Position numbers and translations under genes: made by a program. Below are positions 46,956 through 50,080 of a DNA stretch of 64,000 nucleotides, one piece after another. The DNA is from a virus, in IMG/VR virus record IMGVR_UViG_3300024262_003767, one strand, 5' to 3'. Each line of letters opens with the position of its first letter. Positions within the stretch are counted from its first letter, which is position 1. The notes beneath the pieces were generated by a model that saw only the letters and a list, made by a program, of their open reading frames with translations, had not been told where the DNA came from and made no database searches.

Positions 46956-49472
46956 TTAGGCTTCTAAAAGTGGAGTTTCATCTTTTGGTGGTAATTCTTT
47001 ACTATTCAAATTAACAATAGTAATCTCACCATCTTTACTTCTAAGTGAAACTTTATCACCAATTTTAATTTCACCATTGAGAATAGCATCTGTTAGAGTA
47101 TCTTCAATGTGTCGTTGAATTGCTCTTTTCAATGGTCTTGCACCATATTCAGCATCCCATCCTTCTTCAAATAAGAAGTCTTTAAGTGACTTTGTGATAT
47201 TTACAACATAACCAATATCTTTAAGTCTATCGAGAGTTGTTTTAATTTCAAGGTCAATAATTCTGAAAATGTTGTCTTTTGAAAGAGCGTTGAACATTAT
47301 AAGTTCATCAACTCTATTAAGAAATTCTGGTGCAAATTTCTTTTTCAATTCTTTATCAATAACAGCGTTCTTCTTATCTTGAATGTTTTTGTTGGTGGCA
47401 TTTGTTTGAAATCCCATACCTGTACCAAAATCTTTAAGTTGTCTTGAACCTGTATTCGATGTCATTATGATAATTGCGTTTTTAAAATTAACTCTTCTAC
47501 CATAACTATCAGTAAGAATTCCATCATCAAGAACTTGTAGAAGTATATTAAATACGTCTGGATGCGCTTTTTCCATTTCATCAAGAAGAACAATTGAATA
47601 TGGTTTTCTTCTGATGGCTTCAGTTAATTCACCACCATCATCATAACCAACATATCCTGGAGGCGCTCCAATCAATTTTGAAACTGAATGTTTTTCCATA
47701 TATTCAGACATATCAATTCTAATGAGGTTTTCTTCTGAACCAAAGAGTTCTTTTGCTAGAACCTTTGCTAAGTAAGTTTTACCGACACCTGTAGCACCTA
47801 AGAACATAAATGTTCCGACAGGTTTTTTAGGATCTTTGATACCAATTCTACTACGTTTGATTGAACGAACAATTTTATCAACAGCATCATCTTGTCCAAT
47901 AACAATATTTTTCATTTTAGTTCCAAGATTTCTCAATTTGTTTGATTCATCATCATCAACAGCATCAAGTGGGATTTTGGTCATCATTGAAACAACTTCA
48001 GCAATATCTTCTTTTCCAACGATTTCACGATTTTCGTCCAATTTTTCGTTCCATTCCTCTTTCAATTTTTTCAATTGTTCTGTAAGGTTTCTTTCTTTAT
48101 CTCTCCAAGAAGCAGCTTTTTCAAATTTCTGTTCGTCAACACATTCAGTTTTCTTTTTCTCGGCTTCTGAAATTTTACTTTCAAGAATAGAAATAGCTTT
48201 AGGTTGATTTGAATTTGAATCTACATGAACTTTGGCACCAGCTTCATCCAAAGCGTCAATTGCTTTATCTGGCATAAATCTATCATTCATATATTTATCA
48301 GTCAATTTTACACAAGCTTCAATTGCTTCATCTGTGTACACGACTTTGTGATAATCCTCATATCTAACTTTGAGTTGTTTAAGGATTTCAATAGTTTCTT
48401 CAATGGTAGTAGGTTCTACCACAACTTTTTGAAATCTTCTTTCTAATGCACCATCTTTTTCAATATGTTTTCTATATTCTTCGAGAGTAGTTGCACCAAT
48501 ACATTGGAATGTTCCTCTTGCTAATGCTGGTTTTAACATATTAGATGCATCAAGTGAACCTTGTGCGCTACCAGCACCAATAATTGTATGAATTTCATCA
48601 ATAAAAAGTATAATGTTTGATGTTTCTTCAATTTCTTTGATAATTCCTCTTAAACGAGATTCAAATTCGCCACGATATTTTGTTCCTGCAACAAGGGCAC
48701 CCATATTAAGGGTGAAAATTCTTTTATCTTTAATGTTGTTTGGCACTTTACCATCAACAATTCGTTGTGCTAAACCTTCAACAATTGCAGATTTGCCAAC
48801 TCCAGGCTCACCTATAAGAATAGGATTATTTTTCTTTCTACGTGAAAGAATTTGACTTATTCTTTTAATCTCAATTTTTCTACCAACAACTGGATCGAGA
48901 GAACCTTCTTTTGCTTTTTTGGTAATATCTTCACCAAATTGTTCAATAAGTTTAGGTTTCTTATTTTTATTTGATGCTGTTGTATCACTATGATGCATTT
49001 CTGGATCATCCCAATCTGCACTATTACTTATTCCAGTAACTTTTTCGTGTAATTTTTTAATTATCTCACCTTCATCAATTTTTGAAAACATATCATTTAA
49101 AATATTATTTTTAGTATTTAAGAGTGAAAGTAATACTACATCAGTATCAACATATTTGACATCCATTTCATCAATTATTCCAACACAATTTTCAAGTATG
49201 TCCGTAACTTCTTGTGATAATTGTACTTTATCTTTTCTCTCTGCCAATTGAATATGCTCCATTTGGTTTCTCATTACCAAAGCATCTTGAATAGTTTTTT
49301 TGATTGTTGGAATACGAATATCAATTTCTTGAAGAACTTGATAAGCACGATAATTTTCATCCTCAATTAGAGCCAAAAACAAGTGTTCTGGTTCAATTTC
49401 AGATGATTTATATTGCAACGCAATCGTCTTACTATTCTTAATCACATTATCTACGTCTTTGTTAAAGTTCAT
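46956..49472 (-). CDS. clpC: Class I Clp/Hsp100 AAA+ unfoldase, ClpC-type
   Basis: Clp_N repeats; Walker A GEPGVGKS and GATGVGKT; short UVR-like M-domain ([13 protein letters not shown]); GMGF at the position of the B. subtilis ClpC VGF ClpP-docking loop. Confidence 0.85.
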
Positions 49473-49495
49473 AATTAATTTTTTTAGTTATAATT

Positions 49496-49503
49496 TATAT
49501 ATT
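49496..49503 (-). promoter_or_regulatory. TATATATT box
   Basis: 23 nt upstream of the clpC ATG at 49472. Confidence 0.4.
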
Positions 49504-49538
49504 TAATTTTCTTTATAGGAGTTTTCCTCTTTTGTTTA

Positions 49539-49760
49539 TTAAAATAAATTGAAAATATCAATGTTTTTTGTTTCTCTCTCAAATATCATACCAAGATAAA
49601 ATAATGGAAAAAAGATAATAGATGCTACCCAAATATATATTCCTCGTACAAACCAAGCTGGTTTGATAAATGGTATCGCCCAATTTTTATATAAGTCCCA
49701 ATCTTCTTTCACAAAATTTAGATAAATATATAACATATATTTTGCTATAAATATTTTCAT
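49539..49760 (-). CDS. Small membrane protein
   Basis: Hydrophobic segment IYIWVASIIFFPLFYLGMIF. Confidence 0.4.
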   Translation of the reverse strand: MKIFIAKYMLYIYLNFVKEDWDLYKNWAIPFIKPAWFVRGIYIWVASIIFFPLFYLGMIFERETKNIDIFNLF

Positions 49761-49777
49761 TCGTTTTTTATTATTTT

Positions 49778-50080
49778 TTAATCTTTCTCAATCGTGAGTG
49801 TTAATCCTTGTTCTTCAAGTGCGGATTTAAAAGGTTTTAATTTATCTTTTGAACCAGTTTTTAAGATACTCGCACCTTTCATATGAACTGTCCAAGCTGT
49901 GTTTTCAGCTTTTTCTGGACTAAAACTCATAATTGATATCAGACATAAAATTACATGATCAAAAGAATTGACTTCATCATTCCATAAAATCAATTTATAG
50001 ACTTTATCATCCGATGGTTCAATACCCGCTTTACTGAGTATTTCTTCTAATGTTTTTGTTATTTCTTTTGTGTCGCTCAT
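49778..50080 (-). CDS. clpS: ClpS N-degron adaptor
   Basis: YKLILWNDEVNSFDHVILCL...EKAENTAWTVHMKGASIL; 4-nt overlap with pncB. Confidence 0.85.
   Translation of the reverse strand: MSDTKEITKTLEEILSKAGIEPSDDKVYKLILWNDEVNSFDHVILCLISIMSFSPEKAENTAWTVHMKGASILKTGSKDKLKPFKSALEEQGLTLTIEKD

Follow-up and report, generated by a model that had tools for sequence, protein, structure and literature searches.

A clpS and clpC cassette in a Mahaphage-related huge phage, a candidate for ClpP-coupled N-degron proteolysis

The closest cellular counterparts of the locus described here are the ClpS-ClpC(1)-ClpP systems of cyanobacteria, actinobacteria, and plastids and the ClpS-ClpAP system of E. coli. In jumbo phages, ClpS, ClpP, and ClpA/ClpX have been catalogued by Iyer, Anantharaman, Krishnan, Burroughs, and Aravind (2021, PMC7824862), with the proposal that phage ClpS feeds host ClpAP. 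The huge-phage paper that predicted Bacteroidetes hosts for Mahaphage genomes does not mention Clp (Al-Shayeb et al. 2020, PMC7162821), and the literature searched yielded no account of phages with a ClpS-ClpC cassette. Here, we analyze a 64,000-nucleotide (nt) stretch of viral DNA (IMG/VR record IMGVR_UViG_3300024262_003767, hereafter the window), in which genes for a ClpS adaptor, a small hydrophobic protein, and a ClpC-type Hsp100 unfoldase follow one another.

An earlier sequence-only reading had placed these three open reading frames (ORFs), including an Hsp100 of 838 amino acids (aa), on the minus strand, and we recovered each of them exactly where it had been placed (Table 1). We lean toward the interpretation that they form a huge-phage cassette in which the gene of a small, probable membrane protein separates clpS from clpC, that its Clp genes derive from Bacteroidota, that it belongs to a phage related to the Mahaphages, and that it would run a ClpP-coupled N-degron route. 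Taken singly, the Clp proteins are typical of their families. The novelty lies in a virus that obligately pairs the adaptor with a full-length ClpC and keeps a conserved orphan protein, predicted to be a membrane protein, between the two.

ClpS, ClpC, and the small protein between them

The window ClpS matched Pfam PF02617 at 60.3 bits (cut-off 23; 1.6e-16). All NCBIfam ClpS equivalog models matched it as well but below their cut-offs, and it is therefore a divergent member of the family. Its AlphaFold model had a predicted local distance difference test score (pLDDT) of 75 overall and 81-90 in the core. When this model was searched with Foldseek, the 38 best PDB matches were all ClpS, with TM-scores to the target of up to 0.94; those at the top were ClpS of M. 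smegmatis (TM 0.93, root-mean-square deviation 0.8 Å), E. coli, and A. thaliana.

In E. coli ClpS (the E. coli ClpS, ClpA, ClpB, and Aat reference sequences were taken from NC_000913.3), residues N34, D35, and H66 hold the substrate α-amino group. All three were invariant across 25 aligned ClpS sequences, E. coli included. The gatekeeper Met40 of ClpS excludes β-branched residues; position 40 is Phe, not Met, in the window ClpS, throughout the phage family, and in Bacteroidota ClpS, and P. falciparum ClpS also has Phe. Judging from the alignment, this substitution may alter specificity while leaving membership in the ClpS family unaffected. The N-terminal extension of ClpS is usually thought to be poorly conserved. 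Here, a flexible extension of 26 residues bears a conserved TKTLEEIL motif, and disorder is predicted for ClpS residues 1-22 save for a short helix (11-17) over that motif. The motif (T-x-T-L-E/D-E-I-L, residues 8-17) is common to the phage family and Bacteroidota ClpS, and its E13 is invariant even against E. coli. The nearest cellular relatives of the window ClpS are from Bacteroidota at 41-51% identity (Sphingobacteriaceae; Pedobacter, Mucilaginibacter, Sphingobacterium, and Flavobacteriaceae). Since Phe40 and TKTLEEIL also occur in Bacteroidota ClpS, we regard them as traits of the host lineage and not as phage inventions.

In the Hsp100, Pfam recognized Clp_N (residues 16-65), AAA, AAA_lid_9, UVR (431-463, 9e-8), AAA_2, and ClpB_D2-small, and the translation shows intact Walker A/B and pore-loop motifs. 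Of the Clp_N repeats that had been read from the sequence, one is scored by Pfam; the second comes only from alignment to the ClpC N domain. The closest PDB relative is B. subtilis ClpC, which is collinear with residues 9-819 in one stretch (E 6e-235). ClpB and ClpA PDB alignments each break into two stretches; the NCBIfam ClpB match reaches 896 bits against a cut-off of 1232, also in two stretches, and the ClpA match reaches 797 bits against 993. A multiple alignment gave the UVR-bearing middle domain the length found in Bacteroidota ClpC; the middle domain of E. coli ClpB is about 63 residues longer, and ClpA has none. The architecture is thus ClpC and not ClpB, as had been claimed. We rejected a ClpB-type disaggregase because the middle domain is short and the ClpP-docking loop is present, and we rejected ClpA because a 60-residue middle domain is present and the NCBIfam ClpA match falls below its cut-off.

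The loop itself lies in the second AAA+ ring (D2), where the window sequence FGTGMGF aligns with Bacteroidota FG.G[VM]GF, B. subtilis ClpC VGF, and E. coli ClpA IGL; at this position ClpB carries a 10-residue deletion. The sequence-only reading had put GMGF at the position of the B. subtilis VGF loop, and both the PDB and the multiple alignment agree. It had also named two findings that would speak against it, a GMGF segment lying outside the ClpP loop and a middle domain of ClpB length, and our alignments with ClpA, ClpC, and ClpB revealed neither. By alignment, then, the GMGF loop is homologous to the ClpP-docking loop. The pattern FG.G[VMIL]GF is kept in nearly all of the more than 80 homologs that we inspected, Bacteroidota ClpC included; one viral homolog has GY.

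The nearest named cellular homologs of the window ClpC are Bacteroidota ClpCs at 50-54% identity. Relatives at 58-90% are unnamed metagenomic proteins, coming in part from contigs of 139, 531, and 711 kb, and the exact protein is on record only on a 40.6-kb contig in ENA. From these affinities, both Clp genes appear to have been acquired from the Bacteroidota host phylum. We note that about 10 ClpC clusters of the family are ~1180 aa long and contain an intein with a homing-endonuclease domain (PF05203/PF05204) inside the D2 Walker A loop, directly after GVGK (Cys...His-Asn, followed by Thr). These are L088 (10001-13546) and P0014, P0025, P0028, P0044, P0056, P0057, P0063, and P0065-P0067.

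The 73-aa protein encoded between clpS and clpC has a Kyte-Doolittle 19-residue maximum of 2.1, and one strongly hydrophobic helix is present in each family member. AlphaFold modeled it as a helical, hairpin-like structure (pLDDT 83), with an N-terminal amphipathic or hydrophobic helix (2-17) and a long hydrophobic helix (29-65) with a kink at P52. It had been called a small membrane ORF; the hydrophobicity and the helical model are consistent with a membrane protein, and the membrane location is itself a prediction. Nine residues are invariant in the family across eight contigs (L10, Y11, I12, Y13, K25, P30, I48, P52, and M58). Among the sequences examined, a local hidden Markov model (HMM) of the protein matched cassette loci only. 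A profile search returned 117 clusters of the small protein, and not one of them carries a Pfam domain or is named informatively (0/117). For at least 20 of the 117, the longest contig has the same size as that of a ClpC cluster, and the cluster of the window's own small protein includes a 70-kb contig. No homolog was found beside 80 Bacteroidota clpS genes or beside B. fragilis clpC. By these searches, the 73-aa protein represents an orphan family.

The order clpS, small ORF, clpC was fixed in all eight family contigs examined, with short-gapped or overlapping junctions (8 and 4 nt of overlap in L004). These loci are the window, together with L001 on the 40.6-kb ENA contig, L082 (9.4 kb), L004 (501 kb, IMGVR_UViG_3300044712_000732), L085 (531 kb, ENA contig ERZ27297473 k141_239578), L086 (235 kb), L088 (77 kb), L175 (102 kb), and L176 (121 kb). 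Across them, identity was 57-88% for ClpS, 32-75% for the small protein, and 58-90% for ClpC. Within 4 kb of the 80 Bacteroidota clpS genes, we found no ClpC N domain and no ClpP, and B. fragilis clpC is flanked by gyrA and htpG. Since clpS stands alone in Bacteroidota genomes, the cassette is a phage arrangement. ClpS adjoins solely those ClpC versions that have an N domain; viral ClpCs that lack it have no adjacent ClpS, and no stand-alone N-domain protein was found near them. This pattern fits ClpS acting through the N domain.

Several observations place the window in a huge phage. In the phage collection, homologs of its proteins occur almost only in genomes larger than 460 kb, mainly those of Mahaphages. 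For a 614-aa protein, they are confined to Mahaphages of more than 634 kb and one 462-kb genome, with the best match in LR756501.1 (41%). About 33 window ORFs have homologs scattered over this 735-kb genome, homing endonucleases are frequent in the window, and the IMG/VR relatives include the 501-kb contig. Bacterial contamination, or any other non-phage origin, was ruled out by the homologs in phages above 460 kb, the ORFs in common with LR756501.1, and the many homing endonucleases. Megablast against known phages gave no match, and the window therefore represents no described phage. It is probably part of a phage genome of more than 500 kb in the wider Mahaphage group. A gene near the cassette in the 501-kb relative has a type-IX secretion (T9SS) sorting domain, a domain typical of Bacteroidota. 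Together with the nearest relatives of ClpC and ClpS and the host prediction for Mahaphages, this makes Bacteroidota most probably the host phylum.

The ClpP partner and the proposed route

On the interpretation that we favor, ClpS would bind proteins with a bulky hydrophobic N-terminal residue and dock on the N domain of ClpC. As a hexamer, ClpC would then unfold the substrate and feed it to a ClpP barrel through its Gly-Met-Gly-Phe loops; this ClpP could come from the host or from a phage gene outside the window. The small hydrophobic protein would be a family-specific third component that may anchor the complex at the membrane or regulate it there, and the neighboring cREC-pncA-pncB genes would be a separate module that restores nicotinamide adenine dinucleotide (NAD), probably co-transcribed with the cassette and not mechanistically coupled to proteolysis.

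No clpP was recognized in the 64-kb window, either by tblastn, for which the ClpP sequences of E. coli and B. subtilis served as search probes only (best E 2.3), or when every ORF of 50 aa or longer was scored against a local ClpP HMM. The sequence-only reading had likewise seen no clpP in the window and took this to suggest that host ClpP is borrowed. From 64 kb, this conclusion cannot be drawn: the window covers a minor fraction of its genome (relatives span 501-711 kb), and related Mahaphages encode ClpP at distant loci. A missing clpP in one window says little for half-megabase genomes when related phages scatter their Clp genes hundreds of kilobases apart, and we treat it as weak evidence.

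We therefore compared related phages. The Mahaphages LR756502.1, LR745206.1, and LR756504.1 (634-642 kb) each encode a loop-bearing ClpC that lacks the N domain, a ClpS at a distant locus, and ClpP at two loci, and their ClpS, ClpC, and ClpP genes lie hundreds of kilobases apart. In L080, clpP is directly downstream of a loop-bearing clpC, and ClpS was not found in the flank examined. In Lak phages, ClpP is present, ClpS gave no match, and no Hsp100 was apparent (Prevotella records did not figure among the top organisms in the ClpC search). The 735-kb LR756501.1 has neither ClpP nor ClpS nor a homolog of the small protein; its Hsp100 (352514-354769) retains the N domain and lacks the middle domain, and QGM replaces the loop. 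In this small sample, a loop-bearing ClpC accompanies phage ClpP in 4/4 examinable viral sequences, and loss of the loop accompanies absence of ClpP in 1/1. The loop is kept across more than 80 homologs but lost in a genome without ClpP and ClpS, which argues that it is kept for function. This sequence pattern supports a ClpP-coupled function for the loop.

We consider it about equally likely that ClpP is encoded elsewhere in the phage genome and that host ClpP is used. In a stricter form of the latter, the phage genome would contain no clpP at all, and its ClpS and ClpC would hijack host ClpP and retarget N-degron proteolysis. Consistent with this, neither the window nor the 10-kb flanks of the cassette in eight relatives contain clpP, and the closest complete genome, LR756501.1, has none. 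Furthermore, FGTGMGF is nearly identical to the Bacteroidota pattern and so should fit Bacteroidota ClpP. The small fraction of the genome in view, the phage clpP that accompanies every examinable loop-bearing ClpC, and the concomitant loss of loop and ClpP in LR756501.1 all reduce its appeal, and we hold this version as a tentative possibility.

The converse, a fully phage-encoded protease that is independent of host ClpP, would have clpP at another site in the genome, following the example of the 634-642-kb Mahaphages. Huge phages commonly carry ClpP, as the duplicate loci of those Mahaphages, the copies in Lak phages, and the adjacent gene in L080 illustrate. A distinct ClpP lineage (e.g., L080 4038-4613; loci L092-L171) is represented in IMG/VR by at least 100 large viral contigs, the longest measuring 434 kb. 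Its members share 63-71% identity with one another and ~37% with E. coli ClpP, and MxHQ replaces MIHQP around the catalytic His. However, ClpP was seen on no sequence of the cassette-bearing family, the 735-kb relative has none, and the loop of the phage ClpC has not diverged from the host type. We hold this version, too, as a tentative possibility, slightly less likely than the preceding one. Among the matches listed in two IMG/VR ClpP scans, one of which kept the best 80, the 501-kb relative does not appear, which speaks neither for nor against a clpP in its genome.

Several points weigh against a ClpP-coupled N-degron route of either kind. ClpP is absent within 10 kb of the cassette in the eight relatives, and the choice of proteolysis over unfolding alone is drawn from the loop only. 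Residues of E. coli ClpS that contact ClpA are partly kept in the window ClpS, in which the equivalent of E79 is D79 and that of K84 is Phe. The L/F-transferase Aat, which makes N-degrons, was not found in the window, the family flanks, or LR756501.1. The role that we give the small protein is a guess. Finally, the host already has ClpS and ClpC, which leaves the gain from phage copies unexplained.

In a more elaborate version of the proposal, the small protein would be a phage-specific third subunit that recruits or gates ClpS-ClpC at the membrane. The phage would then run an orthogonal N-degron pathway, for example destroying host defense or membrane proteins cleaved by the M16 and C1 peptidases encoded upstream, alongside an NAD-restoring counter-defense block. 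We think that so specific a scheme is unlikely.

Less likely still is a role that does not involve ClpP, in which ClpC would act as an unfoldase or remodeling chaperone (for virion assembly or for ejected or membrane proteins) with ClpS as a modulator. Phage ClpA/ClpX have been suggested to be translocases or assembly chaperones (PMC7824862), a membrane protein is embedded in the cassette, and the related Hsp100 of LR756501.1 exists without the loop. Against this, the ClpP-docking loop is conserved in the family and its relatives, the N-degron pocket of ClpS is conserved, and the middle domain is of the ClpC type and not of the ClpB type that serves DnaK-coupled disaggregation.

If a virus brings its own N-degron selector and motor, it can rewrite which proteins survive infection, targeted proteolysis being a main lever of cellular control. 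With three small genes and well-understood parts, a ClpP-coupled cassette would offer a testable system for how the largest phages remodel the host proteome and for what the small membrane partner does.

The NAD-salvage neighborhood and window layout

The window has a G+C content of 26%, with densely packed ORFs, mostly on the minus strand, and no tRNA genes in its 64 kb. Upstream of the cassette, the cREC_REC, PncA, and PncB products constitute a set for salvage of nicotinamide to nicotinic acid mononucleotide (NaMN); such sets have been proposed as a means to counter host NAD depletion. The coordinates of these and other features are collected in Table 1.

Table 1. Features of the 64-kb window, from the cassette and its surroundings to more distant genes
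Feature	Position	Strand	Basis or remark
M16 peptidase	56432-57583	minus	
Papain-like C1 peptidase	55721-56407	minus	
SPFH/Band-7 protein, 501 aa	53034-54539	minus	
Terminator-like hairpin, 14-bp stem	52984-53015	minus	Would close upstream unit
117-aa ORF (ORF117)		minus	Between SPFH gene and cREC_REC gene
cREC_REC domain protein	52165-52569	minus	Pfam PF20274, 4.3e-21; family linked to NAD/ADP-ribose conflict systems (PMC7824862)
pncA-like nicotinamidase, isochorismatase fold	51377-52078	minus	Pfam Isochorismatase, 2e-8; NCBIfam nicotinamidase match below cut-off
pncB, nicotinate phosphoribosyltransferase	50077-51375	minus	NCBIfam TIGR01514, 358.6 bits vs cut-off 269.6
clpS, 100 aa	49778-50080	minus	Pfam PF02617
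Small hydrophobic ORF, 73 aa	49539-49760	minus	Between clpS and clpC
clpC, class-I Hsp100, 838 aa	46956-49472	minus	Pfam, NCBIfam
ClpC N domain, residues 1-145	49038-49472	minus	Clp_N; aligns with B. subtilis and Bacteroidota ClpC N domains; expected ClpS docking site
Short coiled-coil middle domain with UVR motif, residues 421-480	48033-48212	minus	
GMGF ClpP-docking loop tip in D2, residues 685-688	47409-47420	minus	Translation checked
Bidirectional intrinsic-terminator-like hairpin, 15-bp stem, A/T run flanks	46900-46933		Just past clpC stop codon
SbcCD-like nuclease, 218-aa phosphoesterase part	62192-62848		
Inserted 293-aa homing-endonuclease-like ORF	61267-62148		DUF7487/NUMOD3
SbcCD-like nuclease, 1055-aa SbcC part	58112-61279		
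S1-domain protein	39976-41106		
NusG-like protein	39403-39912		
Hybrid PAS histidine kinase with receiver domain	31774-33954		
CCA-adding-type nucleotidyltransferase	28206-29465		
Free-standing homing endonuclease genes (HNH and others)	1422-2321, 5658-6491, 7839-8660, 37324-38334		

The last letters of the pncB frame are ...GGAATATGA, whose terminal ATGA supplies the ATG start codon of clpS. This 4-nt overlap, from which translational coupling had been read, is real; the coupling is not demonstrated by it, and in this window the overlap is not distinctive, as 4-nt overlaps occur in 6/63 same-strand neighbor pairs and overlaps of any length in 17/63.

Terminator-like sites are more numerous in the region than in shuffled sequences (9 compared to 3.3 ± 1.9), and the hairpin past clpC is among the two longest. 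Strong hairpins lie at both ends of the seven-gene run, and no strong terminator lies between cREC and clpC. Given these two hairpins, the genes ORF117, cREC, pncA, pncB, clpS, the small ORF, and clpC may share one transcript from 52974 to 46956. A scan for sigma-70 promoters, with a model unsuited to Bacteroidota promoters, showed no enrichment (74 sites compared to 70 ± 9 in shuffles).

Among the eight relatives, pncA/pncB lie upstream of the cassette in seven; none was found within 10 kb in L086. The pncB-clpS junction varies from the 4-nt overlap of the window to a 16-nt gap (L088), one ORF (L085 and L176), three ORFs (L004), or opposite-strand ORFs (L082). A block of ~20 kb is collinear among the relatives, comprising an SbcC-like gene, M16, pncA, pncB, the cassette, DUF1599, a ~600-aa protein, S1, NusG, and radical SAM genes, and the NAD/Clp neighborhood is therefore inherited. 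The pncB of L082 is only 37% identical to that of the window, although its ClpS is 88% identical, suggesting replacement of pncB.

Thus, of the link to NAD salvage that the sequence-only reading had left unexplained, the neighborhood and a probable co-transcription hold up; a coupling of functions was not demonstrated, given a junction of zero to three ORFs and the exception in L086. Inherited synteny fits the adjacency better than mechanistic coupling does. The cREC and NAD-pathway genes match the NAD-centered counter-defense systems of jumbo phages, in which cREC also occurs (PMC7824862), and by analogy a role in counter-defense or host takeover common to both modules is possible. That the two are functionally coupled, for example with ClpS-ClpC controlling the stability of PncA/PncB or of an NAD-depleting defense protein, could appeal to the ATGA overlap, the hairpin-bounded run, the recurrent neighborhood, and this shared potential for counter-defense, but we consider it the least probable of the alternatives in view of the variable junction, the wholesale synteny of the block, the frequency of 4-nt overlaps, and the dispersal of the genes in Mahaphages that have ClpS and ClpC.

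The M16, C1, and SPFH genes directly precede the NAD/Clp run on its strand, and several relatives retain M16 in the syntenic block. As a speculation, the two endoproteases could make new N-termini for ClpS. The ORFs adjoining the SPFH gene, in which we sought an NfeD or ClpP-like partner, had no Pfam matches. The SbcCD-like nuclease gene, a single ORF of ~1240 aa in four relatives, is split in the window at about residue 195 (58112-62848) by an inserted homing-endonuclease-like ORF. Elsewhere, the window encodes a histidine kinase, a nucleotidyltransferase, NusG-like and S1-domain proteins, the last two conserved in the syntenic block, and free-standing homing endonucleases. Near this block, L175 carries an IS605 OrfB/TnpB-like gene (20552-21766) and L176 an Acb3-domain (anti-CBASS-like) gene (21751-22425).

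Comparison with known systems

Compared to the bacterial and plastid ClpS pathways, the phage cassette draws on the same two protein families. ClpS has the same fold, N34/D35/H66 pocket, and flexible N-terminal extension; ClpC has the N domain, two AAA+ rings, and the hydrophobic-Gly-Phe/Leu ClpP-docking loop of cellular ClpC and ClpA. It differs in being virus-encoded and in its fixed arrangement with a small hydrophobic protein, which was seen at 0/80 Bacteroidota loci. Moreover, Phe40 replaces Met40, which is a Bacteroidota trait as well, and neither clpP nor aat was seen in the window.

The three 634-642-kb Mahaphages have a ClpS of 38-39% identity and a ClpC that carries the same loop and is 60% identical over the AAA+ body. 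In contrast to the window, their ClpC has no N domain (707 aa in LR756502.1), ClpS is encoded more than 200 kb away, ClpP occupies two loci, and a homolog of the small protein is missing. The jumbo phages surveyed by Iyer et al. resemble the window in having Clp components and, in the same genomes, NAD counter-defense genes including cREC. There, the Clp genes belong to different phage subsets, and neither a ClpS-ClpC pair nor the small protein is mentioned (PMC7824862); here, the adaptor and a full-length ClpC are obligately adjacent, in a different and uncultivated phage family.

SPO1 Gp53 is a further case of a phage intervening in ClpC-dependent proteolysis: it is reported to modulate B. 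subtilis ClpCP (PMC6873191). Gp53 is an unrelated, small adaptor-like protein that works on the ClpC of the host, whereas in the cassette described here the phage itself supplies the unfoldase together with a canonical adaptor.

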